A stretch of 64,000 nt of DNA, taken from the NCBI GenBank assembly GCA_947165685.1, contig CAMVBK010000003.1, positions 39,299-103,298 of the forward strand, read 5' to 3'. Below, in pieces: positions 10,311-41,887 of the stretch (position 1 is its first letter; every line of letters begins with the position of its first letter). The stretch is from an uncultured Bacteroidales bacterium (GTDB taxonomy: Bacteria; Bacteroidota; Bacteroidia; Bacteroidales; WCHB1-69). The notes beneath the pieces are model-generated. The model did no database searches, was not told the DNA's origin, and saw nothing but the letters and a program-made list of their open reading frames with translations. The translations under genes and the position numbers were made by a program.

Positions 10311-10364
10311 GGTTGTCGAAGTCGTAGCCAATGTTTTCGCAACCCGATTGCAGAAAATATTGTG

Positions 10365-10372
10365 TATCTTTG
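10365..10372 (+). promoter_or_regulatory. -7 promoter box TAtcTTTG
   Basis: Lies 21 nt upstream of ATG 10394. Confidence 0.45.
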
Positions 10373-10393
10373 CCGCCGGAAAATATCGAGATT

Positions 10394-10591
10394 ATGGCAC
10401 ATAAAAAATTGTATAGAACGAGGAATGATGCCAAAATCGCCGGTGTCTGCGGCGGTCTGGCTGAATATTTGGACATAGACGTCACCATTGTCAGGATTGT
10501 CTTCCTGCTGTTGCTGCTGACCGGTTCGCTGGGTTTTTGGATCTACTTGATAATTTGGATTGTGGCACCGTGGGACTATATGGCGAGGTGA
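10394..10591 (+). CDS. PspC domain-containing membrane protein
   Basis: KLYRTRNDAKIAGVCGGLAEYLDIDVTIVRIVF followed by a TM helix. ATG 10394 was chosen inside the longer ORF. Confidence 0.8.
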   Translation: MAHKKLYRTRNDAKIAGVCGGLAEYLDIDVTIVRIVFLLLLLTGSLGFWIYLIIWIVAPWDYMAR

Positions 10592-10595
10592 TTAT

Positions 10596-12884: not shown

Positions 12885-12911
12885 CGGGTTCAGGGTGTCA
12901 ACTGCGCAGCG

Positions 12912-14192
12912 CTATTTGCTTGTCATGATGTCGAGTACCAGATTGTCGGTAGCGGCCATGCCCAGAAGGCCGATGTCCGCCATATTGCGTACGCACTGGT
13001 CCACATCATCGTCGATGATGCCTTCCGCCGATGTAACCACTTCGTCTTCAATAGCCAGCATTGAGGAAAGGACGGCCGTGGAGACGCCAGTGGCCACTTT
13101 CAGCGAACAGCTTGGTTTCGCGCCGTCGCAGATCATGCCCGTGATGTTGGCAATCATGTTTTTCACTGCATAGACGATTTGCTCGTAGGAGCCGCCCATT
13201 AGCCAAGTGAGGCCGCAAGCGGAACCGGTGGCGGCGACTACGCATCCGCATAAGGGCGACAGTCGTCCGAAGCTCTGCTTGATGTAGATAACAGTCAAAT
13301 GACTGAGCATCAATGCTCTGGCAAGTTCCTCCTCCGTTTTCAGACGCTCCTTGGCGAACACCCAGACGGGCAGCGTGGCCGCGATGCCCTGGTTGCCGCT
13401 GCCGGAGTTGCTCATCACGGGCACCTTCACACCGGCCATACGCGCGTCGCAGGCTGCCGATGTGTAGGAGAGGATCTTGGAATAGATGCCGTTGCCGAAA
13501 AACTGGCATTTGGGTTCCATGAAAATGGTGCGGCCGAGTCCGTGTCCATAATGGTTGCTCAGCGACATTTCCGCCGCGCGTTTGTTCAGTTCCGCCGTCT
13601 CCAGGATGAAGTGGATGTCATTTTCCGGCGCAGTGGTGGCGAAATCGTAAACCATGCGCATGGTGAGCGTCAAATCGTCCGAAAAAGACGAATCTGACGT
13701 TTGGCTTTCGTCTTGCAAAAGGGGTGTCCCGTTTTTGGAGATGCGGCTGAAGTGGGTGTGTGCCCCGCTGATCACCACCGAGACGCTGTCGTCGCCGTTG
13801 TGGCACTCCACCTCGATGTAAAGTTTCTCAGCCGTGTCTTTCTTCCGAAGGATGTGGATGCGCCCTTGCGCAATGTACTCCTTGCCTTGTTCCACACTCT
13901 CAGGGGTGAGGTCTTTCAGTACCTCTAAGCTGTATTCCGACTTCCCGACCAGCGCGCCGAGGGCGATGGCGATGGGCAGGCCAATCATGCCCGTGCCCGG
14001 GATTCCTACCCCCATGGCGTTTTTCAACATATTGGTGCTCAGCCATACCGTAATCTGTTTGGGTATGCAGCCAAGTACCTCCTTGGCTTTGGCGACCGCC
14101 AGGGCCACCGCCATGGGCTCGGTGCACCCGATAGCTGGCACCACTTCCCGTTTCACTAATGCGATTATACGCTCTCGTTCCTCTTTTGTCAT
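12912..14192 (-). CDS. UPF0597/L-cysteine desulfidase (serine dehydratase alpha-like) family protein
   Basis: VPAIGCTEPMAVALAVAKA at the N-terminus and a GSGNQG motif. 426 aa. Confidence 0.75.
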   Translation of the reverse strand: MTKEERERIIALVKREVVPAIGCTEPMAVALAVAKAKEVLGCIPKQITVWLSTNMLKNAMGVGIPGTGMIGLPIAIALGALVGKSEYSLEVLKDLTPESVEQGKEYIAQGRIHILRKKDTAEKLYIEVECHNGDDSVSVVISGAHTHFSRISKNGTPLLQDESQTSDSSFSDDLTLTMRMVYDFATTAPENDIHFILETAELNKRAAEMSLSNHYGHGLGRTIFMEPKCQFFGNGIYSKILSYTSAACDARMAGVKVPVMSNSGSGNQGIAATLPVWVFAKERLKTEEELARALMLSHLTVIYIKQSFGRLSPLCGCVVAATGSACGLTWLMGGSYEQIVYAVKNMIANITGMICDGAKPSCSLKVATGVSTAVLSSMLAIEDEVVTSAEGIIDDDVDQCVRNMADIGLLGMAATDNLVLDIMTSK

Positions 14193-14252
14193 TGCAATGA
14201 ATATGAAGTTGCAAAAATACGAATTATATCGGCGCAGGGGCAGTTAAGAACA

Positions 14253-15071
14253 TCATTGCAACAATTCGCCCCAGTGCCGCTCTATTGGAATGCCGTTGTC
14301 GGGATTGAAGAAGTGATGGTTCGCCTCAATGACATGCGCCACGAAGTTCATCGCCTTCAGTACGCTGTCTTCCAGGGTGTTACCTTTCAAGTAATGCCCC
14401 ACCGTCACGGAAGAGAACACATCTCCGGTGCCGGAGAACTGCGATTCTACCTGACGGTACGGGAGCACCTTGATTCGTCCGACACCCTTGTCATACAGCA
14501 TCGTACAGGTCTGGCCCTCCATCAGCATACTGGAGATGATTACCGAATTATCGCCAATGCTTTGAAGTGTCATAAGCAAATCCACCGCCTCGTCATACGA
14601 CAAGTTAAAATTATCCAAATATTTGTCAGTCAAAAATTTAGCTTCTGTAACATTGGGGACTATGACATCCGCCACCTCGCAGGCCTTGCGCATGTAGTCC
14701 ACCGTTTCAGCCGACGCGCCATTATAGAGTTTCCCGTCATCGGCCATTATGGGATCGACAAATATGAACGTGCCTCGCGCCTTCAGGCGTCGGCAGTAGT
14801 CCGTCACAATCCGCGTTTGTTCCTCGGAGACCAGATAGCCCGTACAAACGGCATCCACCATAAAACCTTGTTCCTCCCAGATTTCAATGCTCTGTCGCAT
14901 GTATTCCGTTGTGTCCAACACTGCGAACTTGCCATAGCTGAAGTTGTTGGATACCAACGACGAAGGCAATCGGAAGATTTCGAACTTCAGGTGCGAAAGG
15001 ATTGGAGCCATCACGGACATGCCCAAGTTGCCGTAGCCGACAATGTCACCAATAAGTAAGATGCTGCTCAT
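14253..15071 (-). CDS. Pyridoxal/pyridoxamine kinase family protein
   Basis: ILLIGDIVGYGNLGMSVMAPILS, a VDPIMADDGKLY-type segment, and GTGDVFSS (ribokinase-like anion hole). Confidence 0.75.
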   Translation of the reverse strand: MSSILLIGDIVGYGNLGMSVMAPILSHLKFEIFRLPSSLVSNNFSYGKFAVLDTTEYMRQSIEIWEEQGFMVDAVCTGYLVSEEQTRIVTDYCRRLKARGTFIFVDPIMADDGKLYNGASAETVDYMRKACEVADVIVPNVTEAKFLTDKYLDNFNLSYDEAVDLLMTLQSIGDNSVIISSMLMEGQTCTMLYDKGVGRIKVLPYRQVESQFSGTGDVFSSVTVGHYLKGNTLEDSVLKAMNFVAHVIEANHHFFNPDNGIPIERHWGELLQ

Positions 15072-15130
15072 TAGGGGTTTAGGGGTTTAGAAGTTTAGAA
15101 GTTTAGAAGTTTAGAAGTTTAGGGGTTTAG
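15072..15130. repeat. Tandem octamer tract (gtttaggg x2, gtttagaa x4, gtttaggg) filling an entire intergenic spacer
   Basis: ttaggggtttaggggtttagaagtttagaagtttagaagtttagaagtttaggggtttag. It spans exactly from the COG0523 stop codon to the kinase start codon. Confidence 0.95.
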
Positions 15131-16419
15131 TTTTCTAAGCAGTTGTCGAGTTCGCGGGTGAGTTGGGGAATGTCCATGTTTTGTCCGATGAAGACGATTT
15201 TGACCATGCGGTCGCCGTATTCGGGGTCCCAGTCGCGCATGAACGAGGGGTCTTCTTGCATCAGTTGCACAAGATCTTCCTGCGGGGCGGTGGCGTACCA
15301 AAGACCCGCCTCGGTGAGCTTCTGCTGTACACCCGCTTGTTCGTAGAGGTACGACATGTCGCGGTATTCCTTGAAGTAGCACACGCCCTTGGCTCGGATG
15401 ATGTTCTTCGGGCGCTTTTTCGAGAGGAACTTGTTGAATTCGGCTATTTTAAACGGTTTCCGACGGTAATAGACGAACGTTGAAATCCCATACTCCTCCA
15501 CTTCTCCACCTTCGTGGTCATGGTGGTGGTGGTGATGGTGACCGTGATGACCATGGTCTTCTTCATCCTCGTCATCGTCATGGTGATGATGTTCGTCCTC
15601 GTGGTCATGGTGGTGATGCTCATGTTCGTCCTCCTCATCATGATGGTGGTGGTCGGCGCGGGCTTCGCGCTCCTCCTCCTCGGTGGTTTCGCGCTCGAGT
15701 TCGCGCACCCAGCCGGTGGAGACGGCCACATGCTCGTAGTCGAAGGCGTGGGTGTCAACGATGCGTTCCAGATCAACTTGCGCGTAGTTGGTTTCAATGA
15801 TAGTGGCACCGGGGTTAAGGTGGGTGATAATCTGGCGGAGGTGTGTGATTTCGCCACGGCTCACTTCATCCACTTTGTTGAGCAGCACGATGTTGCAGAA
15901 CTCAATCTGCTGGACGAGCAGGTTTTCAATGTCCTCCTCGCCGATATCCTCGCGCTCAAGGTCGCCGCCGCAGGCGAACTCGCTCTGCATCCGCAGGGCA
16001 TCGACCACCGTGACGATGCAGTCGAGGCGCGGGGTACCAAACTCCGTGTATTTGGGATTCATACGCGGGATGGTGGAGATGGTGCGGGCGATGGGCTCCG
16101 GTTCGCAGATGCCGCTGGCCTCGATGACAATGTAGTCGAACTGCTGCGACTTGACCAAATCAGACAGCTGATCGACCAAATCCATTTTCAGCGTGCAGCA
16201 TATACACCCGTTCTGCAGTGCCACAAGGCTGTCGTCCTTTTGGGCCACCACGCCGCCTTTCTGGATGAGCGAAGCATCAATGTTCACCTCGCCTATGTCA
16301 TTGACTATCACCGCAAACTTGATGCCCTTGCGGTTCGTCAGAATATGATTGACCAACGTTGTCTTTCCGCTTCCTAAATAGCCCGTCAGCAGTAACACCG
16401 GCACATCTTTCTTCGTCAT
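15127..16419 (-). CDS. COG0523 (CobW/ZigA/YeiR-like) GTPase metallochaperone with His-rich insert
   Basis: P-loop GYLGSGKTTL and CXCC motif GCICCT. A His/Asp/Glu tract covers about aa 245-306, followed by a CobW_C-like end. Confidence 0.9.
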   Translation of the reverse strand: MTKKDVPVLLLTGYLGSGKTTLVNHILTNRKGIKFAVIVNDIGEVNIDASLIQKGGVVAQKDDSLVALQNGCICCTLKMDLVDQLSDLVKSQQFDYIVIEASGICEPEPIARTISTIPRMNPKYTEFGTPRLDCIVTVVDALRMQSEFACGGDLEREDIGEEDIENLLVQQIEFCNIVLLNKVDEVSRGEITHLRQIITHLNPGATIIETNYAQVDLERIVDTHAFDYEHVAVSTGWVRELERETTEEEEREARADHHHHDEEDEHEHHHHDHEDEHHHHDDDEDEEDHGHHGHHHHHHHDHEGGEVEEYGISTFVYYRRKPFKIAEFNKFLSKKRPKNIIRAKGVCYFKEYRDMSYLYEQAGVQQKLTEAGLWYATAPQEDLVQLMQEDPSFMRDWDPEYGDRMVKIVFIGQNMDIPQLTRELDNCLEN

Positions 16420-16566
16420 AATCTCTATTTTTTTCGGGCGGCAAAGGTACTAAATATTGCCGTATCTTTGAGATTCATTCCTAAATATAACGCACAATGG
16501 TTTTGCAGGCCGCCATTCATGGGTCGTGACATTGTTTCGCTTTCAAATGACCTTGGAAACCTCGTT

Positions 16567-20723: not shown

Positions 20724-22511
20724 TTGGCTAACAAGTCATTGGGAATCAAATGGATAAATGCGGGCAGCAACTATTTCAACGATTATTCGCAGGAGGCCGT
20801 TCCCCTTTACAACGGGAACATTTCCGCCCTTTCCGAAAGTATCTATAACTTATGGAACAGAGGGATTCTAAAACTTTTCCGTTACGACAAGTTGAACAGG
20901 ATCAAAAGGATGCGAACGGCCGCACATCATTTCGAGGGGTCTGGATGGGAGACACCCTCCGACAACTTTGCCACGGATTACACCTACGACTGGAACGGAA
21001 ATTTGCTATCTTTGCGGCGCAAAAACCAATACGGCGAGGAGATGCACGATATCCGATATACGTACCCGAATGGCAACAATCGCCTGGGAAGCATAGCTGC
21101 CACCGGTATTTCATCCAGTGTCTATCAGTACGATGCGTTGGGCAACCTGGTGCGCGACAATGCCGAGGGTTTGACCGTGGGCTGGAACGCCTTGGGAAAA
21201 GTGGATACCATCCGCAGGAACGGTAACCTCCTGTCCGCATTCCGCTACAGTCCCACGGGCCAGCGGCAGGTGAAGACCGACTCCTCGGGCACGGCCTTCT
21301 ACATCCACGACGCCACGGGCAACGTGATGTGCATTTACCGGCAGGATGGCGACACCCTGAGAGCCACGGAGCGGTATCTATATGGCAGCAAGCGTTTAGG
21401 CATGTTGGAGCAACAGGTGTGGATTGCCGCGGGCGGCGTGGCACGATTGCAGGATGCCAGCACCATAGGGGCCCGTGTTTACGAGTTTACCGACCATTTG
21501 GGCAATGTGACCTACACGGCACAAGACCGGAAATACCTTGTGCCGGACAGTTATGGCCAACTTCAATATCTCCCTTCCACGGTCACCTACACCGACTACT
21601 ACCCCTTCGGCTACCCCATGCCAGGCCGAAGTTCCTACATGGGGGGTTATCGGTACTTCTTCAATGGGCAGGAGTCTGATAATGAGGTGTTTGGGGAAGT
21701 GATGAGTTTGACCGCTGAATTCTGGCAGTACGATACGAGGTTGGGCCGGAGGTGGAATGTGGACCCCGTGTTCAAGGAGTACGAGAGTCCGTATGCGTGC
21801 TTCGCGGGGAATCCGGTGCGGTTTGCGGATCCGAGAGGAAAGGATGGACGCGTTACTTATACTGAGACTGAAAATGGAGGAGACATTGTTGTTGAAACAA
21901 AATTCTTCGTTTATGGCAAAGGTGCAGAGATTGCTGTAGAAAACGCGAACAAACAGTTTGCTAAGTTAAACACATCCACTTCTGTTGTGATTGATGGAAA
22001 GACATACAATATCAGGCTGAATATCACATGGGAGGTTCGTCAAGATCTTGCAGACATGGACATTGAGAATATGGATTATGCCGATCTTCAATCAATAGAA
22101 GGGTATCAGGAAGGGGACAATTTCCTAAAAGTAGGGGTTCCCGTAGGAGGAGGAAGAACTGGTTTCCTCGGTGAAGGATACAAGGGCGGAAATACAGGTT
22201 ATTCTTTGGTAACATCCGCAGATGCGGTACTCCATGAATCTTTCCACAATCTGGGATTTAAAGATACGTATTATCAAAAAGGATTCGAACGCGACGTAAT
22301 GTCAAGTGGAGCACTTGCGGGACAAGAAATCAATCAAATTCATTACGAGGCTTTGATTCCTATTATTTTGCAAAACTATAATTACATCAAAGAACGTGTC
22401 ATTGCCAATCAGACGTTGGGGACTAACTGGCCTGTCCATAAATTGGGACTGGACATTAACAATCCGAAACAGTTTCATATTTTGCTACGAAGTATCTATC
22501 TGGATTATTAA
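20724..22511 (+). CDS. RHS repeat-associated core protein, 5'-truncated, with an HExxH C-terminal toxin domain
   Basis: YD repeats YTYDWNGNLLSL and YQYDALGNLV, plus DHLGN and YYPFG. The core end is GGYRYFFNGQESDNE..RLGRRWNVDPV..FADPRGKDG, followed by an unrelated tail containing HESFH. An in-frame stop sits at 20628 and the first start is TTG, so the usual long N-terminal shell is absent. Confidence 0.8.
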   Translation: MANKSLGIKWINAGSNYFNDYSQEAVPLYNGNISALSESIYNLWNRGILKLFRYDKLNRIKRMRTAAHHFEGSGWETPSDNFATDYTYDWNGNLLSLRRKNQYGEEMHDIRYTYPNGNNRLGSIAATGISSSVYQYDALGNLVRDNAEGLTVGWNALGKVDTIRRNGNLLSAFRYSPTGQRQVKTDSSGTAFYIHDATGNVMCIYRQDGDTLRATERYLYGSKRLGMLEQQVWIAAGGVARLQDASTIGARVYEFTDHLGNVTYTAQDRKYLVPDSYGQLQYLPSTVTYTDYYPFGYPMPGRSSYMGGYRYFFNGQESDNEVFGEVMSLTAEFWQYDTRLGRRWNVDPVFKEYESPYACFAGNPVRFADPRGKDGRVTYTETENGGDIVVETKFFVYGKGAEIAVENANKQFAKLNTSTSVVIDGKTYNIRLNITWEVRQDLADMDIENMDYADLQSIEGYQEGDNFLKVGVPVGGGRTGFLGEGYKGGNTGYSLVTSADAVLHESFHNLGFKDTYYQKGFERDVMSSGALAGQEINQIHYEALIPIILQNYNYIKERVIANQTLGTNWPVHKLGLDINNPKQFHILLRSIYLDY

Positions 22512-34746: not shown

Positions 34747-35211
34747 TTATTGCCTTTTTGGGCGAGCCGTCACAGGGGGGCGGCGCTTCCAAGCGTCGCC
34801 AAAATTACTAATTTCTAATTGCGGCAGCTTGTTGTTCGAGACCCTCCCGTCGGCGTAGTAGTAGCGCATCTCGCCGTTGCTGGAGAACACGCCCTCGTTG
34901 CCGAGAAATTGTCCTGACCCCGGCATGTCGTCCACCGAGCCAATCCCGTGCACAAAACCGACAAAGTCACGGTACCACGGAAAAAATACCTCCTCCCCGC
35001 TCGGGTCCACCCACTGCAGCGGGTTGTTCAAACAGTACGAGTACCGGTTGTAGCTCTGCGTGAAGTCGGGCAGTTGCACGAAATTGTCGGGGGAGAAGAA
35101 GCGGGCGATCACGGGGTCGTACAGGCGGCCGTTCATGTTGATGACCTTCAGGCCGTCGTAGTGCTCGTGGCCGGTGAAGTTATGTGTGTGATTTCTAACA
35201 ACTTTATTCAT
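34747..35211 (-). CDS. Orphan RHS core-end fragment with a short truncated tail
   Basis: FTGHEHYDGLKVINMNGRLYDPVIARFFSPDNFVQ..NRYSYCLNNPLQWVDPSGE. About 187 bp are near-identical to 37592-37778. The tail shares SSNGEMRYYxADGRVSNNKLPQ with ORF 35671-36384. Confidence 0.7.
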   Translation of the reverse strand: MNKVVRNHTHNFTGHEHYDGLKVINMNGRLYDPVIARFFSPDNFVQLPDFTQSYNRYSYCLNNPLQWVDPSGEEVFFPWYRDFVGFVHGIGSVDDMPGSGQFLGNEGVFSSNGEMRYYYADGRVSNNKLPQLEISNFGDAWKRRPPVTARPKRQ

Positions 35212-35216
35212 TTCCT

Positions 35217-35669
35217 TTATAAGACTTTCGCATTGATTAATAACGACAGCATAAAGAAAGCAACAATTATCATAGTATGTAAGAGGGCAATGGCTACAAC
35301 GAGAACCATCGGTAAGACTCTTTTCAAGTTTTCAATAGATTTAACAAAAGATTCCCCGGCATAAGACAAGAACACTTCCTTTTTTTTTGCTGATGATTTT
35401 ATGGTGTAATGATCGATTACAGACAGTGAAATTACAACTAAAAGCACACCTATAAAAACAAAAAGGTAATATTCACTGTAATATTGCAATACAAGATTTG
35501 GAAAGAAAAAAGGAACAATACTCCACAACACGATCCAAATATGAAATCCCAATAATCCCAAAGCACTTGATAGTGTGGAATACATTATTTCAAGAGAAAG
35601 CCATTGATACGCTCTACTAAGCCATTTCAACCACCATGAAAAGTGAATATTTTTTGCTTGAGAATCCAT
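35217..35669 (-). CDS. Putative immunity protein (polytopic membrane protein)
   Basis: Its ATG lies 2 nt after the upstream toxin stop. It has 3-4 hydrophobic helices and is AT-rich. Confidence 0.45.
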   Translation of the reverse strand: MDSQAKNIHFSWWLKWLSRAYQWLSLEIMYSTLSSALGLLGFHIWIVLWSIVPFFFPNLVLQYYSEYYLFVFIGVLLVVISLSVIDHYTIKSSAKKKEVFLSYAGESFVKSIENLKRVLPMVLVVAIALLHTMIIVAFFMLSLLINAKVL

Positions 35670-35670
35670 G

Positions 35671-36384
35671 TTAATACATCTTTCCAAAACCGCCGAAGCT
35701 ATCTGTTGATACGTCTAATATAAAATATGTAGTACTAATTGCAAATCCTAAAGGACCGCCAAAGACACCTAAACAAGTCATGGCAAAATCTATCCCGAAT
35801 TTTGTTGTTGCCTCCCATGAAAATCCATGATTGTTGGTATATGTAAATAAATCATATCCTTCAAGACCAATAGATACAGCTGCCAATCCATTTCCTGTCC
35901 ACTTTGCCACGCTTTTGAGTGCTTTACCTGACTGTCCGATAGAATGGTTATATCTCCATGTCCTTTTAGATTCAGAAAGATTTTTAAACTTACGCCATGT
36001 CCTAGCAGATTTATACTTGCTCCTGGCTGCAAATTCAATCAGATGATACTGCGTTCCAACAGAGACTGATAACCCGTTCAACCCGTTGATATATCCGGGA
36101 TTTATGGGAGCCATATATTGGAAAGTGGTAGAGAAGCTGCCCGTCTGTCCGGAGGGGTCGCCGATGCGGTAGAAGCCCGCGCCGCGCATGGGGAAAGAGG
36201 GGAAGGCAAGCTCCGATGGATTCCCCCGGTCGATGAACACCTGCGGCAGCTTGTTGTTCGAGACCCTCCCGTCGGCGAAGTAGTAGCGCATCTCGCCGTT
36301 GCTGGAGAAGCCGTGTGTCTCCGCGTATCGCACGGATCGCGCGGATAATTCCTCAGGGCTGTATGTTCGGGGCGGGTTCGTCAT
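35671..36384 (-). CDS. Orphan toxin module with a Gly-rich hydrophobic C-terminus (putative membrane-active toxin)
   Basis: The N-terminus shares the linker SSNGEMRYYFADGRVSNNKLPQ. The C-terminus GLAAVSIGLEG...FAMTCLGVFGGPLGFAISTTYFIL..FGGFG is glycine-zipper-like. ATG 36384 was chosen, with a -7 box upstream. Confidence 0.55.
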   Translation of the reverse strand: MTNPPRTYSPEELSARSVRYAETHGFSSNGEMRYYFADGRVSNNKLPQVFIDRGNPSELAFPSFPMRGAGFYRIGDPSGQTGSFSTTFQYMAPINPGYINGLNGLSVSVGTQYHLIEFAARSKYKSARTWRKFKNLSESKRTWRYNHSIGQSGKALKSVAKWTGNGLAAVSIGLEGYDLFTYTNNHGFSWEATTKFGIDFAMTCLGVFGGPLGFAISTTYFILDVSTDSFGGFGKMY

Positions 36385-36402
36385 TTTTCTACAATTCCGT
36401 CG

Positions 36403-36410
36403 CAAAAGTA
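36403..36410 (-). promoter_or_regulatory. -7 promoter box TActTTTG (minus strand) for the orphan toxin
   Basis: The plus strand reads caaaagta, 18 nt upstream of ATG 36384. Confidence 0.4.
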
Positions 36411-36525: not shown

Positions 36526-37197
36526 TTAAGGTTCAAAGATGTCATCGTCAAATTCAATGTCAAAGATATTACCTTGAGGAGATGTTGGGTCGTCTGATGT
36601 TTGTGTTTTAATCAACCACCGTTCGTCGAAAGAGGTTGGATAAGGACAGCGTTTTCTGTATTTCAATTTATCTTTTTCATAATATGGGGCTTTAAGAGTG
36701 TTGTATTTGAGAATCTCATATTCATTTGTTTTTTCATCAAAATAAAGCAGGGAGATGGAACCTTTCAATATTGAAATAATTTTGTTGCTGGCCAGTTTTA
36801 TATCTTCTATGATAATTTTTTTATCACAAGGAAGAACTTCATCTGAAAATGCCGCCACTAACCAAGCTGAAGACACACTGTTTGATTTTCGAATTGTTTC
36901 ATCACAAGTAATAAAGGGTATTGTGTCCTTGCTGTTGTTAAAAAGAAGGAAAAAAGGAGTCTTGTCGTTGTCTAACAATGATGAGTCTTCAGTTTGGATT
37001 TTCATATATAATAGGTGGTAATAGATTTGGTACAAATTAATGTTGAGTCTCACGGATGATTCCCCGATATAATTTACCCTATCGAATTCATCGTTTACAT
37101 ATACAACTTCTTTTACGGTTATTGCTGCTTGAGCATTCACTCGAACAGATAATACTGAAACAATAGACGCCATCAGCGCAACCAAGATCCTGTTCAT
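36526..37197 (-). CDS. Putative immunity protein (exported)
   Basis: Signal peptide MNRILVALMASIVSVLSVRVNAQA. Lies directly downstream of the RHS tail. AT-rich. Confidence 0.5.
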   Translation of the reverse strand: MNRILVALMASIVSVLSVRVNAQAAITVKEVVYVNDEFDRVNYIGESSVRLNINLYQIYYHLLYMKIQTEDSSLLDNDKTPFFLLFNNSKDTIPFITCDETIRKSNSVSSAWLVAAFSDEVLPCDKKIIIEDIKLASNKIISILKGSISLLYFDEKTNEYEILKYNTLKAPYYEKDKLKYRKRCPYPTSFDERWLIKTQTSDDPTSPQGNIFDIEFDDDIFEP

Positions 37198-37208
37198 ACG
37201 ACAATTGC

Positions 37209-37427
37209 TTAATACTTTTTATATAATTGAGGATTTCCACTGACGACTTTTTTGAATTTTGCACTGGTTTTGGCATATATTTCTTGTGCTCGTTGATAAG
37301 CGACAGCATAAGATTCTCTTTGGAAAGGTGTCAAATTATTGAATTCCACTATGCCTAATTCCTTACATTGTTTCATGTGCCCTATTTCATTATCATAACT
37401 GCTTTTTATATCGTAATAGTTGTCCAA
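37209..37427 (-). other. Out-of-frame continuation of the RHS toxin tail (72 codons)
   Basis: Starts (TTG) inside the T6 run at the end of ORF 37406-38188 and ends 11 nt before the immunity ATG. One extra T would fuse the two frames. Confidence 0.5.
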
Positions 37428-38188
37428 AAAAGAAAATTGCGAGAAATCATTCGCACACCATCGTTACCTACCCAAGACATGTTGTCCTTGATTTGATTCC
37501 AAAAATCACGATTGATGATGTGAATTTTACCATCATCAATCCCATCTGTGCCTAAAAACACGCCATATTGGTCAAAATAATCCCCAAACATCTCCCCGCT
37601 CGGGTCCACCCACTGCAGCGGGTTGTTCAAACAGTACGAGTACCGGTTGTAGCTCTGCGTGAAGTCGGGCAGTTGCACGAAATTGTCGGGGGAGAAGAAG
37701 CGGGCGATCACGGGGTCGTACAGGCGGCCGTTCATGTTGATGACCTTCAGGCCGGCGTAGTGCTCGTGGCCGGTGAAGCCGCGGTCGAAACGGAAGGTCT
37801 CTGCCAATTGGCCTGGCTCGCCCTCTGCAAACACCGTCCAGTCGGCATCGGTCTTCACGTTGCCCCACGGGTCGAAGTGCAAAGCGCGGACCACCTGCTT
37901 GCCGCTGTTGGTGATGTGCGTGTAGCTGCCGAAACGGTCGGGATGCACGTAGTACATACTGTCAATGCCGTTGCGGCGCACGCAGATGGCGGCGAGGCCG
38001 TTTACACCATAGACGTAGTTGTAATGGGTGGTCACCCCGCCGGCTTCCACCTCCTTCTCGTAGTTGGAGCTGATGTGGTAGCGGGTGCGCACCACATGCC
38101 CGTGGTATTTGAACACTGCCTTCACCCGCTGTCCGTCGGCACCGTACTCCAACAGGAACGGCTGCTTGATTACGTGTCGTGTTTTCAT
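37406..38188 (-). CDS. RHS repeat-associated core fragment plus short tail (probably frameshifted toxin gene)
   Basis: YYVHPDRFGSYTHITN..LHFDPWGN..FTGHEHYAGLKVINMNGRLYDPVIARFFSPDNF..NRYSYCLNNPLQWVDPSGE. Only about 200 aa of the shell are present. Confidence 0.75.
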   Translation of the reverse strand: MKTRHVIKQPFLLEYGADGQRVKAVFKYHGHVVRTRYHISSNYEKEVEAGGVTTHYNYVYGVNGLAAICVRRNGIDSMYYVHPDRFGSYTHITNSGKQVVRALHFDPWGNVKTDADWTVFAEGEPGQLAETFRFDRGFTGHEHYAGLKVINMNGRLYDPVIARFFSPDNFVQLPDFTQSYNRYSYCLNNPLQWVDPSGEMFGDYFDQYGVFLGTDGIDDGKIHIINRDFWNQIKDNMSWVGNDGVRMISRNFLFWTTITI

Positions 38189-38195
38189 GACTATG

Positions 38196-38525
38196 CTACT
38201 TTTTCACGATTTTCCAGGTCTCCGTTTTTCCGTTCAATGCGATGGTCAGCATATAAACTCCTGTTTTATACGCTGAAAGATCTATGGTTATCGTTGTTCC
38301 GGTAATCCACGCCTCTGAAAGCAGCTGTCCTGCCAGATTGGAAAGCCGGTAATAGCTGCCGGCAACAGGCTGCCCGAACTGCAACGATTTAGCATCGACC
38401 TCAATCGTGGATCGCAGAATGCGGTTGCCTGCGGCGTCGTAGTCATAGGTGCGGGGGAGGTTTTCCTGGGCGAGGCACGAAAGAACGATAAACGATGCCA
38501 GCGACAACACGATGATTTTCTTCAT
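38196..38525 (-). CDS. Mini-protein: signal peptide + single YD repeat + T9SS type-A C-terminal sorting domain
   Basis: MKKIIVLSLASFIVLSCLAQ, then TYDYDAAGNRILR, then YRLSNLAGQLL...IDLSAYKTGVYMLTIALNGKTETWKIVKK (Por secretion tail pattern). Its stop lies 7 nt before the RHS fragment ATG. Confidence 0.55.
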   Translation of the reverse strand: MKKIIVLSLASFIVLSCLAQENLPRTYDYDAAGNRILRSTIEVDAKSLQFGQPVAGSYYRLSNLAGQLLSEAWITGTTITIDLSAYKTGVYMLTIALNGKTETWKIVKK

Positions 38526-38741
38526 TGTTTCTTATTTCTTGAGATTTAATTGGGTGAGCTCCCGTAGGGGAAATTCCGCATATTCACCTTTCACCCAGTC
38601 TCCGGCAACAGTGCGAAGCCCACCAAACAGTATGAAAGAAAAATATCGCGGCAAAATTAATACAAAATACAATACACTAAGCCAAGCATTTTTCGAAAAA
38701 TTTCATACCAACAGCAACGGAGTGCTGTGCGGCCTTTCCGT

Positions 38742-40931
38742 TCAGCGGGTCACCACTACCCGTACGACTTCGCCCAGTGACGACCGCAGAAAATACACTC
38801 CCGCAGGAAGCCTCGACACGTCCAGCACCGCCGCTGTCTGCGCCGCGCCAGAAGCCATCACCAGCCGGCCATAAAGGTCGTAAACGGCAATCTGCTGCAG
38901 CGGGCGGTCGCTCTCGACATGCAACACGCCGCTTGACGGGTTTGGATAGACACGCAGCGAAGCCTGTTTTTCATACGTCCCCGCGGACGTGTGCGCTGGA
39001 GGAATCGCCCCGCGGAAAAAGGCCGCTCCGCCGGCATAGTTGCCGATTAACAGCTCGGGTCGCCCGTCGCCGTTGAGGTCGGCCGCTGCCGGAGCCGTTC
39101 TCCTGCCCTCACGGAAACCGTGCGCAGTTCCGGCAATGGTCTCTGCCAAGTTCGCCTCCGACTTCTCGAAAACACCCGACAGATTGCCGTCAATTTGCTT
39201 GTAATAAGCGATTTCGCCCTGCTCGCCCCCGCAGAACAACACGGTTCCGCGCTGCGCGTCCCGATAGAGGCACGGCACGCTGTAACCGAAATAGGACTGC
39301 GTGAAGTCGCGCATGTCAACCCCCCCAAGTGTGTCGGTGATCTTTTGGAAGACACTGGCTGCCGAGCCGTCACCCCGATAATAGGACAGCAGTCCGCGCC
39401 TGTTGCCTATGACCAAGTCCGCATTCCCGTCCCCGTCCAAATCGAAGCACTGCGGGGTTGCGCATTCGCCGACATCCACTCCCGCATAGTTCATCACCAC
39501 CGAAGCGTCCCCGAACAGCAGACGGTCGTGCGGCACCAACATTAAGGAGCCGTCTTGCAACCCGCAGAGCATATCCGGCTGCCCGTCTCCGTCAAAATCT
39601 CCGAAAGTGGGATGCAATGCATTGAGACCCATTGTTTTCAGATTCCCGAAGTCGCGGGTCTGCAACGAAAATGCCGGCATGGAGGATGTCCCGACATTCC
39701 GATAGTAGCTCACCGATGCCGAGAAATGGGAGGTCAGCCACCCGTTCACCACCTGTGCGCTGTCGAACCGGCCGTAGTTCCCGACAAACAAGTCCAGAAG
39801 CCCGTCTCCGTCAAAGTCGTAAAGCACGGGATGGCAGCCGCTGCCCACATCCAGCATCTCCCGTTGCAGGAAATCCGTCTGGGTGAGAATGTACTGCTGA
39901 ATCTGCGTGTCGTAATCGAAGACCCACACGCTGTTCAGATCCTGCGACTTGGTGAGGGAAGGGTCCGACGGCGACACCACAAGCGACGGGGCGTCATGTC
40001 CGGGCAGTGACACGAAGGATGCCGCCGGCATGGAGTAGAGCTTGATGGGCGTGAAAGTCGGAAACGCCGTGTCCTGCTCGGTCATCCGCGCATCCGAAAG
40101 CGTGCCGTGGTTATATAATAATATATTGTAAGGGGAATCGACATCGCCAAGCAGCAGGTCGGGCAGGCCGTTGCCGTCGAAGTCGTGCAACAGCATGGAG
40201 GAGCCGGTGTGCCGTGTAGGACCGTCGCCGGACTTGTCGGCGCAATCCGTGAAAAGGGTGACGACGTTGTTGTCGGCCGCCTCCGAAAAATGGCCCCAGC
40301 ATTCATTTTCCAAGCGGAAGTCAAACGGTTCGCCGTCGGAGGCGTAATTTCGCAGCTGATGGACATATCTGCCTAAAACCCAGAAGTTCAGGATGTCCAA
40401 GTGGCCGTCATCATCCACATCGTCCACCACCAAATAGTCGTCGGGGGAGGCGTAGATGTTAGTATAGCCGTTATAGTAGTAGGCCTGTAAGGCATCCGTG
40501 ACCGGGCGGAAGCGCAGCGTGTCTGTGGAAATGTTCTCGAAGACGCGGATGGAGGCGAGTCCGTAGGTGAAGATGTCGGGCTTGCCGTCATGGTTGTAGT
40601 CGTGGAGGATGGCCCAATCATGCAAATCCGGGAAACAATGCGCATACTGCGGCGCAAACACATAGTCATCGTCCCTGCGGAGAAACGGCAGAAGCCGGTT
40701 GCCGTGCTTCTCGAAGCCGAGGAGGTCGGGGGTGCCGTCCAAATCCAGGTCTATTTCCGAGAAACGCACGGAGTTGAGGCCGCCTGCCCACGGGAACTTC
40801 AACACGCGACAATTCTCTTCCACTTGGACGTGTCCGTCCCGCTCAAAGCCAAAGTCGTAAAAGGTATTCTGCGCGGCGAGGAAGCCCGGCAGAAGACAAA
40901 GGAGGAGACCAAAAAGGAGAGTCCGGCCCAT
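38742..40931 (-). CDS. FG-GAP/VCBS repeat protein with T9SS C-terminal sorting domain
   Basis: Signal peptide MGRTLLFGLLLCLLPGFLAAQ. Repeats include DFDGDGLLDLFVGN, DLDGDGNADLVIGN and DLNGDGRPELLIGN. The CTD is LRVYPNPSSGVLHVE...VYDLYGRLV...LPAGVYFL. Confidence 0.8.
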   Translation of the reverse strand: MGRTLLFGLLLCLLPGFLAAQNTFYDFGFERDGHVQVEENCRVLKFPWAGGLNSVRFSEIDLDLDGTPDLLGFEKHGNRLLPFLRRDDDYVFAPQYAHCFPDLHDWAILHDYNHDGKPDIFTYGLASIRVFENISTDTLRFRPVTDALQAYYYNGYTNIYASPDDYLVVDDVDDDGHLDILNFWVLGRYVHQLRNYASDGEPFDFRLENECWGHFSEAADNNVVTLFTDCADKSGDGPTRHTGSSMLLHDFDGNGLPDLLLGDVDSPYNILLYNHGTLSDARMTEQDTAFPTFTPIKLYSMPAASFVSLPGHDAPSLVVSPSDPSLTKSQDLNSVWVFDYDTQIQQYILTQTDFLQREMLDVGSGCHPVLYDFDGDGLLDLFVGNYGRFDSAQVVNGWLTSHFSASVSYYRNVGTSSMPAFSLQTRDFGNLKTMGLNALHPTFGDFDGDGQPDMLCGLQDGSLMLVPHDRLLFGDASVVMNYAGVDVGECATPQCFDLDGDGNADLVIGNRRGLLSYYRGDGSAASVFQKITDTLGGVDMRDFTQSYFGYSVPCLYRDAQRGTVLFCGGEQGEIAYYKQIDGNLSGVFEKSEANLAETIAGTAHGFREGRRTAPAAADLNGDGRPELLIGNYAGGAAFFRGAIPPAHTSAGTYEKQASLRVYPNPSSGVLHVESDRPLQQIAVYDLYGRLVMASGAAQTAAVLDVSRLPAGVYFLRSSLGEVVRVVVTR

Positions 40932-40933
40932 GG

Positions 40934-41887
40934 CTAACGCACGCGCAGCCGCTGGCCCTCACGGATGAAATCGCCGCGCAGGCGATTGAGTTTCTTGATT
41001 TTCGAGACCGTGGTGTGGTACTTGATGGCAATCCTGCCCAAGTTTTCTCCTTTGCGCACCCTGTGGTATTGCGCCGAGGCAGCCGGTTTCTTGGGCTTCT
41101 GTTGCTGTTGGATGTCCTGTGCGGTCGGGTTCGGCACGGAGACCGTGTATCCGGAGATGAACAGGGTGTCGTACTTCACCTTGAAGTTGTCGAAGTCGAT
41201 GAGGCGGTTGGGGTTGATGTCGTTGCCGAGATAGCGGACCTCGAAATGGAGGTGCGAGCCGTAAGAGCGGCCGGTGTTGCCGCCGAGGCCGATGATGTCG
41301 CCGGCCTTCACCATTTGTCCGGGGTTGACCAGGCGGCGGGAGAGGTGGCCGTAGTAGGTCTCCAAGCCGTTTTCGTGGCGGATGACCACCAGGTTGCCGT
41401 AGCCGCCGGTGTTGGCCGTGCCTTTGGAGATGCGGACGATGCCGTCCCAGGCGGCCGCCACGGGGGTGCCCTCCGGGTAGCCGAGATCGACGCCGCGGTG
41501 CATGCGGCGGTGACGGTAGCCGTAGTTGGAGGTGATGCGGTATTGGGCCGGATGGTGGTAGCCCGTCAGGTCGATGGTGTCACGCGCCGCCGAACCCGTG
41601 TGACGGTAGTGGATGGTCACGATGTCGAAGTTCTGGTACAGGTTGAAGCCTGGCATCCAGTTGAAGTAGGTGAACAGCAGGCCGTTGCCGTGGTCCACGT
41701 TGTCAAGGTTGGAGTCATACATCGAGTTGATGAGGTTGCCTAAGGAATCCTCCTCAATGTCGGCATCAATGTGCGCGGTGTCGTTCACCACGTTGAACTG
41801 GATAATGTTCTCCTGCGCCGACATCTGTCCGAAAAGAAGCAGGCACAGCGGCAACAGGAGGATATAACGGATTAACATTCTGCTCAT
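40934..41887 (-). CDS. M23 family metallopeptidase with C-terminal LysM domain
   Basis: HRGVDL, GNTGRSYGSHLHFEV, and a LysM YHRVRKGENLGRIAIKYHTTVSKIKKLN. Confidence 0.85.
   Translation of the reverse strand: MSRMLIRYILLLPLCLLLFGQMSAQENIIQFNVVNDTAHIDADIEEDSLGNLINSMYDSNLDNVDHGNGLLFTYFNWMPGFNLYQNFDIVTIHYRHTGSAARDTIDLTGYHHPAQYRITSNYGYRHRRMHRGVDLGYPEGTPVAAAWDGIVRISKGTANTGGYGNLVVIRHENGLETYYGHLSRRLVNPGQMVKAGDIIGLGGNTGRSYGSHLHFEVRYLGNDINPNRLIDFDNFKVKYDTLFISGYTVSVPNPTAQDIQQQQKPKKPAASAQYHRVRKGENLGRIAIKYHTTVSKIKKLNRLRGDFIREGQRLRVR

Follow-up and report, generated by a model that had tools for sequence, protein, structure and literature searches.

A family of small YD-hairpin proteins with a T9SS sorting domain encoded upstream of giant RHS genes in Bacteroidota, and a deletion allele of it in an uncultured Bacteroidales bacterium

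In Porphyromonas gingivalis a small gene for a protein with a T9SS C-terminal domain (CTD) adjoins rhs, and a link to the T9SS was proposed in 2019 (PMC6775972). The small protein PGN_1817 has 145 aa (PMC7712824), and its gene immediately precedes PGN_1818, the largest Rhs gene; neither of the two occurs in strain W83 (PMC6775972, PMC7712824). In Apibacter most rhs genes of the SpvB/TcdB type adjoin genes for type A sorting-domain proteins, and there too a T9SS link was proposed (2021, PMC8125069). These papers report the adjacency and propose a T9SS connection, but describe no YD hairpin, tether architecture, phylum-wide family or mechanism. Beyond such adjacency remarks and a hypothesis for the TANFOR toxins, no description of a T9SS-Rhs export mechanism was found in the literature.

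Signal-peptide-bearing RHS toxins of the TcB/TcC-like kind are common in gut, mouth, rumen and environmental Bacteroidota; how the RHS toxins of this phylum cross the outer membrane is not established, and the T9SS recognizes only C-terminal domains. An earlier note on the DNA analyzed here, made from the letters alone, proposed that a 109-aa protein encoded next to an RHS fragment might act as a T9SS adaptor in trans, and knew of no described system of this kind. The mechanism is indeed undescribed, but the adjacency was already known in P. gingivalis (PMC6775972) and Apibacter (PMC8125069). The protein belongs to a large and functionally unnamed family in which a single hairpin of the RHS type is joined by a tether to a T9SS tag, offering a simple and directly testable answer to the export question.

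A small hairpin and sorting-domain protein and its family

The window, the whole stretch of DNA analyzed here, comprises 64,000 nucleotides from an uncultured Bacteroidales bacterium. On its minus strand, positions 38196-38525 encode a protein of 109 aa whose translation is identical to that quoted in the earlier note, and the sequence agrees with the description given there of a signal peptide, a YDYDAAGNR element and a T9SS CTD in an ORF 7 nt from an RHS ORF. Its features are as follows.

38196..38525, minus strand: mini-ORF, a deletion allele of a conserved ~149-aa family made up of signal peptide, YD hairpin, tether and T9SS CTD
38469..38525, minus strand: predicted signal peptide MKKIIVLSLASFIVLSCLA, from the sequence, an AF2 helix at residues 3-17 and the family alignment
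38397..38453, minus strand: YD beta-hairpin RTYDYDAAGNRILRSTIEV, one RHS-repeat-like unit with AF2 strands at 25-29 and 35-43
38378..38386, minus strand: deletion scar with a single CGTTGCAGT copy left, seen when the window and L039 are aligned at the DNA level with L036 and L037
38199..38372, minus strand: remaining T9SS type A CTD (aa 52-109), from TIGR04183, without strand 1 and the PNP motif
38652..38659, minus strand: TAATTTTG box in the 216-nt gap upstream of the mini-ORF, matching the Bacteroidota -7 promoter motif TAnnTTTG

The stop codon TAG (38196-38198) is followed by 7 nt (CATAGTC) and then by the ATG of the RHS ORF at 38188, and in the window sequence the two ORFs are in different frames. 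A fusion of the two by frameshift or read-through was considered and is ruled out by the different frames and by the TAG with its 7 nt, as well as by the partners elsewhere, which have their own start codons and signal peptides. The TAATTTTG box lies 127-134 nt upstream of the mini-ORF ATG; the window has 57 copies of TAnnTTTG where 27.6 would be expected, and a single copy is therefore weak evidence of a promoter. The box noted earlier at about 130 nt upstream is thus present, but carries too little information to serve as evidence.

At the N-terminus a positively charged beginning precedes a hydrophobic stretch and an A|Q site kept across the family. The family-wide ...AQ pattern and the Q-rule of Bacteroidota together predict cleavage before Q20. 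The hairpin core YDYDAAGNR (38421-38447, minus strand) follows, and within it D30, A32, G33, N34 and R35 are invariant in 68 homologues. Neither the RHS_repeat nor the YD_repeat profile (PF05593 in Pfam, TIGR01643 in NCBIfam) matches the protein at E<=1, so that of the single YD repeat claimed earlier the motif with its invariant D-A-G-N-R stands, but not a profile match. The protein has this one hairpin and no Rhs core, and is not a tandem-repeat RHS shell.

For the C-terminal part the proposed scan with TIGR04183 (NCBIfam) gave a match above the cutoff (35.4 bits against 23, E 7.8e-9) that covers aa 52-109, up to the last residue, and profile positions 17-72 of 72. Some 16 positions at the start of the profile are left unmatched, and the type A CTD that the earlier note had seen in the last ~70 aa is therefore genuine but truncated at its N-terminal side to ~58 aa. 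Pfam PF18962 is present in all intact homologues and scores 24.5 bits here, below its cutoff of 27. The full seven-strand beta-sandwich, complete in intact relatives, was not found in the window CTD, from which strand 1 (INVKVF) and the PNP motif are gone. The AF2 model of the window protein shows no tether, the hairpin leading straight into the remaining sandwich; 17 residues have pLDDT >= 90, against 79 in the model of an intact homologue.

A word-indexed search found 566 homologous clusters, and an exhaustive search at E<=1e-30 yielded representatives of at least 419 clusters (50% identity), with lengths of 135-170 aa in nearly every case. Some of the homologues from the word-indexed search carry the JGI label 'YD repeat-containing protein'. 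Members of the family begin with a Sec signal peptide, followed by the YD hairpin, a polar and disordered tether (20-60 aa) and an entire CTD of T9SS type A. The hairpin, of motif [YF]xYDAAGNR[IV]xR, stands almost at the mature N-terminus, and its turn holds half of the invariant columns of the family. In the AF2 model of an intact member the hairpin (25-29/35-40) is followed by a disordered stretch at 46-62 (pLDDT <50) and a CTD with pLDDT of ~95, which matches the solved T9SS CTDs 8qb1, 8glk_D, 8gl8_D and 5m11; for 8glk_D, a substrate CTD bound in the translocon, TMt is 0.87. The family is spread over 27 species-level genome loci, from Prevotellaceae, Muribaculaceae, Tannerella, Limibacterium, Labilibaculum, Chitinophagales and Kapaibacterium. 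Two segments, positions 1-52 and 89-142, make up the match between the family HMM and the window ORF (E 1.5e-32), and the ORF matches 13 relatives at E 5e-62 to 7e-24; on these alignments it is a member of the ~149-aa family in the form of a deletion allele. The family merits a model of its own; the label 'T9SS type A sorting domain-containing protein' is too generic for it.

RHS toxin genes downstream of the family

Wherever the next ORF in the genome loci is longer than 1500 aa, it encodes an RHS toxin (15 of 15 loci; 1690-2203 aa). All 15 partners have a signal peptide of their own and a variable C-terminal toxin tail, and the Rhs core motif is found in 13. Searches of five partners against Pfam returned SpvB, FG-GAP and RHS_repeat in each and TcdB_toxin_midN in some, with no Por_Secre_tail, that is, no CTD, in any of the five. 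Along the ~2000 aa of a partner the order is signal peptide, SpvB N-terminal domain, FG-GAP propeller, RHS shell, Rhs core and variable toxin, and the mini-gene lies directly upstream, usually 0-60 nt away. In L001, for example, the mini-ORF is at 10112-10558, with a mature form predicted to begin at Q21, and the 1986-aa RHS partner is at 10566-16526. The partners lack a CTD because their C-terminus is the toxin, and the conflict that had been pointed out between an RHS toxin and a T9SS signal, both of which must be C-terminal, is borne out by the toxin tails of the 15 and by the five searched for a CTD.

The association also holds in the reverse direction. Among 66 metagenomic SpvB-RHS genes, each with at least 500 nt of upstream sequence, a mini-ORF lies upstream of 41, and in 37 of the 41 it is within 200 nt. 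It is found upstream in about 40 of 50 low-GC loci and in none of the 14 loci with a GC content of 0.52-0.62. The prediction that such mini-ORFs would be found next to RHS genes in other genomes is thus confirmed, with reciprocal conservation across Bacteroidota. About 20% of the low-GC SpvB-RHS genes are without the mini-ORF, and in some of these the upstream place is taken by a gene resembling those of tail fibres. The gene tables of eight loci (L001-L008) show no TcA-like gene.

An N-terminal YD extension was looked for in the GC-rich SpvB-RHS proteins that are without a mini-ORF, and none was found; the partners therefore give no sign of a 'missing strand' that the small protein would supply. 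An HMM of the hairpin only, run against the 15 partner shells, returned weak generic YxYD matches at no consistent position. The place of the family directly upstream of giant RHS genes suggests that it may belong to the route by which these toxins reach the cell surface.

Decay of the locus in the window

No full-length, signal-peptide-bearing RHS partner was found at the window locus. Downstream of the mini-ORF are the following features.

37406..38188, minus strand: RHS remnant of 260 aa, in which the end of the YD shell is followed by the Rhs core and 61 aa of tail
38168..38188, minus strand: retained RHS codons 1-7 (MKTRHVI), with the deletion junction directly downstream
36526..37197, minus strand: ORF between toxin modules, with no Pfam or NCBIfam match
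35671..36405, minus strand: orphan toxin module from this same RHS locus, 68% identical to residues 1774-1985, the toxin tail, in the intact RHS protein of L001
34747..35211, minus strand: another orphan fragment of an Rhs core, short-tailed, with TIGR03696 at 59.7 bits and tblastn matches to RHS cores

The remnant carries the Rhs core PLQWVDPSGE at aa 190-199 (TIGR03696, 62.9 bits), and its residues ~10-233 are 73% identical to residues 1550-1773 of the 1986-aa RHS protein of L001. Of the Tc-like set of SpvB, FG-GAP, shell and core, only the core was found in the window fragment; SpvB and the FG-GAP propeller are missing, as is nearly the entire shell, and the N-terminus, MKTRHVIKQPFLLEYG..., contains no signal peptide. 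The full-length RHS gene of L040 begins MKTQHVINRSGLIMLLCLLGLVVKAQNTSLPVG and has its first seven codons in common with the remnant, and MKT[RQ]HVIKQPFLLEYGADG is read in the window and in L036, L037, L038 and L039. From these comparisons the remnant is an internal-deletion product in which codons 1-7 are fused to the last ~250 codons.

The mini-ORF has suffered a loss of its own. It is short of 40 aa, namely the tether and the first CTD strand with its near-invariant PNP motif, and in the family alignment this 40-aa gap is found in the window allele and in P0001 only. Intact alleles of the same species have the 9-mer CGTTGCAGT twice, flanking the 120 bp that are absent from the window, and by this alignment the loss is a slippage deletion between the two CGTTGCAGT repeats. 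In L036 and L037 the mini-ORF is intact and the RHS gene already deleted; the RHS deletion is therefore older than the 120-bp deletion. The history of the locus would then have two steps, an older in-frame deletion of ~1540 RHS codons that left hardly any of the shell and nothing of the signal peptide, SpvB or the propeller, and a later slippage of 120 bp between the CGTTGCAGT repeats that removed the tether and the first CTD strand. The 109-aa allele is open in 8 sequence variants on more than 20 contigs, and as it is still open, its loss of function is inferred rather than demonstrated; the variants differ at 1-5 residues, too little divergence for purifying selection to be separated from recent origin.

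Farther downstream, the orphan toxin module at 35671-36405 has weak similarity to the Bfe1 family, and the ORFs at 36526-37197, 37209-37427 and 35217-35687 are putative immunity genes, judging from their position and the usual layout of RHS loci. The locus is degraded, and what is left of it is most probably a non-secreting relic heading an orphan toxin/immunity array; what the window mainly illustrates is the decay of such modules into arrays of this kind. Elsewhere in the window, another CTD protein is encoded at 38742-40931 and a PorE-like OmpA protein, with a score below the cutoff, at 6959-8986, both of them indirect pointers to a T9SS in the host.

Proposed export route, its alternatives and known systems

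The explanation that best covers these observations, with a probability of roughly 0.6, is a widespread family, most likely serving the export of its RHS partner in trans, of which the window copy has been degraded in two steps along with its RHS gene. What the intact members would do is a more tentative matter, and the reading favored here, held at somewhat less than even odds, is that they may be T9SS adaptors acting in trans and surface tethers, the hairpin docking on the CTD-less RHS cocoon and the CTD exporting and anchoring the complex. The small protein and the RHS protein would both enter the periplasm via Sec, where the YD hairpin would attach to the RHS protein through beta-strand augmentation and so add one more repeat to an open edge of the YD strip. 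The CTD of the small protein would then engage the T9SS, so that the CTD-less toxin is exported in trans, and removal of the CTD with probable lipid/A-LPS attachment would leave the toxin flexibly tethered at the surface, ready to be delivered on contact. Docking of the hairpin on the shell, export by piggyback and retention at the surface are all inferred. There is precedent for a YD shell built from more than one chain in TcB and TcC, separate chains that form one continuous shell, and for adaptors in trans in the T6SS Rhs effectors. Counting against the mechanism are the weak and inconsistently placed hairpin matches, the lack of any sign of a 'missing strand' and the low-GC genes that have no mini-ORF; an RHS cocoon of ~230 kDa, once folded, might also be too large to pass through the SprA channel.

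The alternative that survives best, although unlikely, is that the small protein is ordinary T9SS cargo, a YD peptide displayed at the surface as a docking site, receptor or kin tag, and that the toxin leaves the cell otherwise. Outer-membrane vesicles, lysis or an unidentified exporter would be the routes, with later binding to the peptide optional. The small protein does have the full architecture of a cargo, with a tether, and GC-rich, apparently non-Bacteroidota SpvB-RHS toxins with signal peptides exist without a mini-ORF; this class of toxin is therefore not intrinsically dependent on the mini-ORF for export, and the fifth or so of low-GC loci that lack it point the same way. Against this, the spacing of 0-60 nt and the reciprocal conservation suggest co-expression and a stoichiometric partnership, and we know of no other general two-step outer-membrane exporter in Bacteroidota for a periplasmic protein of 230 kDa. 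The same argument about exporters has been made in PMC7073777.

Less probable still is a role of the hairpin as a cap or primer of assembly in the periplasm, nucleating or capping the open edge of the growing YD strip and thereby helping the shell to fold or keeping it from aggregation, with the CTD serving to remove the cap afterwards. The hairpin is more strictly conserved than any shell repeat and stands at the very N-terminus of the mature protein, as would suit such a role, but a chaperone would need neither a disordered tether of 20-60 aa nor a full sorting domain in hundreds of members, and RHS proteins of the same architecture fold where no small protein is encoded.

That the 109-aa protein and the 260-aa RHS piece in the window are a working minimal pair exported via the T9SS, as the earlier note had hypothesized in assigning the product of 37406-38188 to the small protein as its passenger, is very improbable. 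Both ORFs are open and 7 nt apart, the 109-aa allele has stayed open in its 8 variants, and independent cassettes of a mini-ORF with the C-terminal tip of an RHS gene, and a further ORF downstream, are seen in Labilibaculum sp. K2S (L035, L031), L022 and L024. The 260-aa fragment, however, has no signal peptide, being the deletion product of a gene that had one; it would therefore stay in the cytoplasm and could not meet a Sec-exported protein in the periplasm, and by this absence the pairing is largely refuted. Moreover, the fragment retains only the end of the shell, the tips examined in other lineages either have no ATG or do not share the reading frame of the retained start codon, and the small protein, short of 40 aa, has lost CTD strand 1, the PNP motif and the tether.

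The remaining idea, also raised in the earlier note, of a chance ORF or chimeric deletion product with no biology of its own can be set aside, for although a deletion relative to its relatives does exist, those relatives are free-standing ~149-aa genes in hundreds of clusters, uniform in length and architecture across the phylum, with no larger uninterrupted parent gene from which the ORF could have been carved.

If the adaptor reading is correct, the family would represent the first case of piggyback cargo in the T9SS and the export path that has long been sought for Bacteroidota RHS toxins. It would add cargo recognition in trans to the T9SS, give that system a direct part in contact-dependent interbacterial antagonism, and provide a compact, portable tag of hairpin and CTD for the export or display of RHS cages.

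Canonical type A cargo of the T9SS (RgpB, mirolase, NucA) has the N-terminal signal peptide, predicted in the small protein, and the terminal TIGR04183 CTD in common with it. In canonical cargo, passenger, Ig-like domain and cleavable CTD are in one chain, whereas here the passenger is a hairpin of ~20 aa with a tether, the presumed real cargo is a separate protein encoded downstream, and in the window copy CTD strand 1 is also absent. The RHS partners resemble the BC component of Tc toxins (TcB-TcC; TcdB2-TccC3) in the order SpvB, FG-GAP, TcdB_midN, RHS shell, Rhs core and toxin, but B and C form a single chain that has a signal peptide, and instead of half a shell the small partner provides a T9SS-tagged hairpin. 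The adaptors of T6SS Rhs toxins (PAAR, VgrG, EagR chaperones) are small rhs-adjacent proteins that, as proposed for this family, couple a signal-less toxin to a secretion machine; they differ in the machine, in the one-step route from the cytoplasm, in their unrelated folds and in having no signal peptides. PorA of P. gingivalis (PGN_0123), a small CTD protein in the service of the secretion system and neither enzyme nor adhesin, is a precedent for such a role, but it has a FimH-like Ig domain, acts in PorXY-SigP signaling, is confined to Porphyromonas and outside the CTD is not homologous to the family. WapA of Bacillus subtilis is a surface-anchored RHS toxin of contact-dependent inhibition; its anchoring, however, is in cis and to a Gram-positive cell wall. 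The TANFOR toxins of Bacteroidetes have a signal peptide, no CTD and CTD-bearing neighbors, and use of the T9SS has been hypothesized for them (PMC7073777), but they are not RHS proteins and their neighbors are large proteins of the SprB type. As for the loci described at the outset, the PGN_1817/PGN_1818 pair and the rhs loci of Apibacter are almost certainly the same module. P. gingivalis lies outside the genome loci sampled here, and PGN_1817 would be placed in the family by its length, its listing among CTD proteins and its position; with both genes present, P. gingivalis ATCC 33277/381 is a genetically tractable model for the module.

The mini-ORF and its RHS neighbour in the window

The 109-aa ORF at 38196-38525 (minus strand), put forward in the earlier note as an in-trans T9SS adaptor for RHS toxins, is present with a translation identical to that quoted there. 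Its proposed T9SS sorting domain (CTD) is recovered by profile, TIGR04183 (NCBIfam) scoring 35.4 bits against a cutoff of 23 and matching aa 52-109 only (profile positions 17-72 of 72), and PF18962 (Pfam) gives 24.5 bits, slightly under its threshold of 27. RHS and YD repeat profiles of NCBIfam and Pfam do not match the mini-protein, so that the proposed YD repeat stands at motif level. The box reported upstream, TAATTTTG, is found at 38652-38659 (minus strand); TAnnTTTG is found 57 times in the whole window where 27.6 copies are expected, a count reached in none of 100 shuffles, and a single box proves little about a promoter. The excess is consistent with a genome using the Bacteroidota promoter type.

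Features of the window discussed in the text
40934-41887, minus strand: M23 peptidase with LysM domain, next upstream
38742-40931, minus strand: 729-aa FG-GAP/VCBS-repeat protein with T9SS CTD (PF18962, 41.8 bits), directly upstream of the mini-ORF
38196-38525, minus strand: mini-ORF; its stop codon TAG is followed after 7 nt by the ATG, at 38188, of the 260-aa ORF
37406-38188, minus strand: 260-aa RHS remnant with Rhs-associated core (TIGR03696, NCBIfam, 62.9 bits)
35671-36405, minus strand: orphan toxin module, 68% identity to the toxin tail of the related metagenome locus L001
34747-35211, minus strand: second Rhs core fragment
20724-22511, plus strand: second RHS-like ORF, 595 aa, with YD motifs YTYDWNGNL and YQYDALGNL (RHS_repeat 20.3 bits, under the cutoff of 22)
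6959-8986, plus strand: OmpA-family protein (PorE NF052230, 230 bits, cutoff 600; CHU_0125, 278 bits, cutoff 620)

The gene order upstream of the mini-ORF is the same in the related locus L039, and the L001 lineage likewise has an M23 peptidase upstream, separated from the module by an NMN transporter gene. The ORF at 20724-22511 is probably another RHS fragment; no mini-ORF adjoins it. The sub-cutoff PorE-like protein is a hint that the genome possesses a T9SS.

The first homology search with the window mini-protein returned 13 clusters, 12 of them 148-185 aa long (ten of these 149 aa); only cluster P0001 shares the length of 109 aa, and alignment with relatives reveals that 40 internal residues are absent from both it and the window protein. 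In the same-species loci L036 and L037 (DNA ∼99% identical) the gene is intact at 149 aa and contains the 9-mer CGTTGCAGT twice, 120 bp apart; in the window and L039 one copy is left (window 38378-38386) and everything between the two is gone. The loss is thus a classical in-frame slippage or microhomology deletion. The 109-aa allele, labeled solely "hypothetical protein [Bacteroidales bacterium]", is known in 8 sequence variants from over 20 contigs (NCBI, ENA, Logan), which rules out an assembly artefact. Corresponding to residues 48-87 of the intact scheme, the deletion takes out nearly all of the tether and, from the CTD, strand 1 (INVKVF), half of strand 2, and the PNP motif, which hardly varies in the family. 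In the AF2 model the 109-aa protein still folds, with the hairpin leading directly into what is left of the sandwich, and pLDDT is at least 90 in 17 residues versus 79 in an intact homologue.

The RHS neighbour has been shortened as well. Its N-terminus reads MKTRHVIKQPFLLEYGADG, and the corresponding gene in L040, a locus whose mini-protein is 87% identical, starts with MKTQHVINRSGLIMLLCLLGLVVKAQNTSLPVG, the signal peptide and SpvB-type start of a full-length protein; from residue ∼10 the window ORF is 73% identical to the L001 protein (1986 aa) over residues 1550-1773 of the latter. Together these show that the window gene is codons 1-7 joined, in frame, to a terminal stretch of about 250 codons, having lost about 1540 codons with the signal peptide, SpvB, the propeller, and nearly all of the shell. 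This deletion is common to L036-L039, and since the mini-ORF is still intact in L036 and L037, the RHS deletion came earlier and the mini-ORF deletion later. The window copy belongs to a conserved two-gene module but has been damaged by deletion, and is most probably a local relic.

In the cluster of relatives of the RHS remnant most members are only 127-139 aa long versus 260 aa, and related strains may carry further truncations or different tips. The C-terminal end of the 34747-35211 product and the N-terminal region of that of 35671-36405 have in common the stretch SSNGEMRYY[YF]ADGRVSNNKLPQ, which has the look of a junction where toxin cassettes recombined. Weak similarity (E 0.019) links the 35671-36405 product to the T6SS effector family Bfe1. 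ORFs interspersed with these modules match no Pfam or NCBIfam family and, judged from position only, may be immunity genes.

The mini-protein family

Searching with a profile of 24 diverse members retrieves 566 clusters at E ≤ 1e-5, almost all of 135-155 aa, which records name only "T9SS type A sorting domain-containing protein", "YD repeat-containing protein", or "hypothetical protein". When 1.84 billion representatives are scanned exhaustively with HMMER, 419 clusters (50% identity) match at E ≤ 1e-30, almost all 135-170 aa with end-to-end profile matches. The best match of that scan, P0122, is a giant 3404-aa protein built of CTD-like Ig repeats, with 23 stretches resembling the CTD part of the profile. 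In a set of 68 members no variation is seen at D30, A32, G33, N34, R35, P79, P81, G106, G129, and K148, and the hairpin turn thus accounts for half of the invariant positions; motif variants such as F-x-YDADGNMESR, YDNAGNL, and YNNAGNR leave the pattern unchanged.

AF2 model of the intact member P0002 (68-sequence alignment)
Residues 2-17: signal-peptide helix
Residues 25-29/35-40: beta-hairpin, pLDDT about 65
Residues 46-62: disordered stretch, pLDDT below 50
Residues 66-149: beta-sandwich, very confident, pLDDT about 95

The modeled sandwich superposes on the solved T9SS CTDs 8qb1 (mirolase), 8glk_D, 8gl8_D (RemZ), and 5m11 (PorZ), with TMt 0.87 and 1.8 Å for 8glk_D (NucA CTD, translocon-bound). 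Model and superposition together predict a family layout in which the signal peptide is followed by a single YD hairpin at the N-terminus of the mature protein, a flexible tether, and the CTD.

Linkage to giant RHS toxin genes

On metagenome contigs with intact relatives, 7-8 nt separate the mini-ORF from the start of the gene downstream. The 1986-aa partner in the L001 lineage matches SpvB, FG-GAP, TcdB_toxin_midN, RHS_repeat, and TEN_YD-shell; in L005-L008 the partner is called as two pieces that jointly carry the L001-type domains. With each GTDB species represented by a single genome, scanning found 27 loci with a mini-ORF, in Prevotellaceae, Muribaculaceae, Tannerella, Limibacterium, Proteiniphilum, Labilibaculum, Lentimicrobiaceae, Flavipsychrobacter/Chitinophagales, and Kapaibacterium. 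In all 15 loci with a downstream ORF of more than 1500 aa (twelve in genomes, three in the metagenome lineage of L001), that ORF is 1690-2203 aa long, alignable to the L001 RHS shell, and provided with its own N-terminal signal peptide; the Rhs core motif was found in 13 of the 15, lying 250-335 aa before the end and followed by an unrelated toxin tail. Pfam searches of four partners (L009, L017, L025, L029) found SpvB, FG-GAP, and RHS_repeat in each, TcdB_midN in one, and Por_Secre_tail in none.

In the reverse direction, the SpvB N-terminal region of the partners identified 80 metagenome loci, 66 of them with at least 500 nt upstream; a family member lies upstream in 41 of the 66, within 200 nt in 37. 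Fourteen of the 24 loci lacking a mini-ORF have a GC content of 0.52-0.62 and look non-Bacteroidota, against 0.28-0.47, with one exception, where a mini-ORF is present; about 40 of 50 low-GC SpvB-RHS loci have one. The association is thus strong in both directions and follows the T9SS-owning phylum, and the mini-ORFs that the earlier note had proposed seeking beside RHS genes elsewhere in Bacteroidota do exist.

In the P0004 lineage (L005:41-9108, L006:1-9105, L007:3-6861) the RHS gene is split (188 + 1837 aa, or 788 aa + 866-912 aa), a LytTR-type regulator and a 166-aa ORF with no assigned function always precede the module, and varying defence islands adjoin it (DarT/Macro, AbiEii, RloB/AAA_21, ORC-CDC6-like/PRTase). 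In L079, L085, L103, and L113 a tail-fibre-like gene replaces the mini-ORF upstream of the SpvB-RHS start, and in L087:3-1541 a YD-tether-CTD module shares one open frame, with no intervening stop, with the C-terminus of a tail-fibre-like protein ending in a coiled coil that resembles an endosialidase-chaperone domain. The tail-fibre-like gene may be an alternative or additional partner.

Cassettes of mini-ORF plus RHS tip recur in Labilibaculum sp. K2S, in tandem (two and a half in L035:1045-6786, two in L031:2631-5144), and in L022 and L024; L022:9923-14312 holds two mini-ORF copies, with RHS remnants behind the first. The Labilibaculum tips either have no ATG or do not share a frame with the retained start, and behind each is a further ORF, possibly an immunity gene. 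Such cassettes would be displaced or decayed modules that kept the promoter-proximal gene and downstream ORFs. From the repeated copies in L035, L031, and L022, each orphan toxin module has its own mini-ORF, unlike classical rhs orphan arrays.

Proposed export mechanism and known systems

For the module as a whole, the mini-protein layout, a partner with its own signal peptide, no CTD and a C-terminal toxin, and tight reciprocal linkage are shown. On the most likely reading, both proteins would enter the periplasm via Sec, where the hairpin, a single RHS-repeat unit more strictly conserved than any repeat within the shells, would bind the RHS protein by beta-augmentation; the CTD would then recruit the T9SS, and after its removal the toxin would stay tethered on the cell surface. 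Of two indirect probes for a docking site, one found no N-terminal YD extension in SpvB-RHS proteins that have no mini-ORF, and the other, a hairpin-only HMM, hit 15 partner shells weakly, generically, and at varying positions. The main rival holds that the mini-protein is a surface peptide or docking site only and that the toxin leaves by another route. A role as periplasmic cap or primer is less likely because tether and CTD are universal in the family. Adaptor-mediated export does not extend to the window pair itself, for which it was first proposed, because the 260-aa piece lacks a signal peptide and the sorting domain of the mini-protein is cut short. The earlier interpretation is thus partly supported, being right on the family, wrong on the window pair, and not wholly unprecedented.

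The proposed mechanism has precedents: TcB and TcC are two chains that form a single YD shell, T6SS Rhs effectors depend on small in-trans adaptors, and WapA is an RHS toxin anchored at the surface.

The earlier note knew of no described system of this kind; gene adjacency and a suspected T9SS link are already published. In P. gingivalis 381 the "T9SS-cargo protein" PGN_1817, tabulated elsewhere as a hypothetical CTD protein of 145 aa absent from W83 (PMC7712824), is located upstream of PGN_1818, the largest Rhs gene, and a mechanistic link between them was suggested (Moradali et al., 2019, PMC6775972). Most Apibacter rhs genes encode SpvB/TcdB N-termini and adjoin type A sorting-domain genes, for which a T9SS association was proposed in an area termed poorly understood (Steele & Moran, 2021, PMC8125069), and an analogous T9SS hypothesis exists for TANFOR toxins (Jana et al., 2020, PMC7073777). 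These four papers do not contain the YD hairpin, the tether layout, the family size and spread, or the mechanism, and literature searches beyond them found no further description. The window relic leads to a large unnamed family, through which RHS toxin export in Bacteroidota becomes a directly testable question; the two-gene module is a novel variation on how T9SS cargo is organised, its mechanism being hypothetical.
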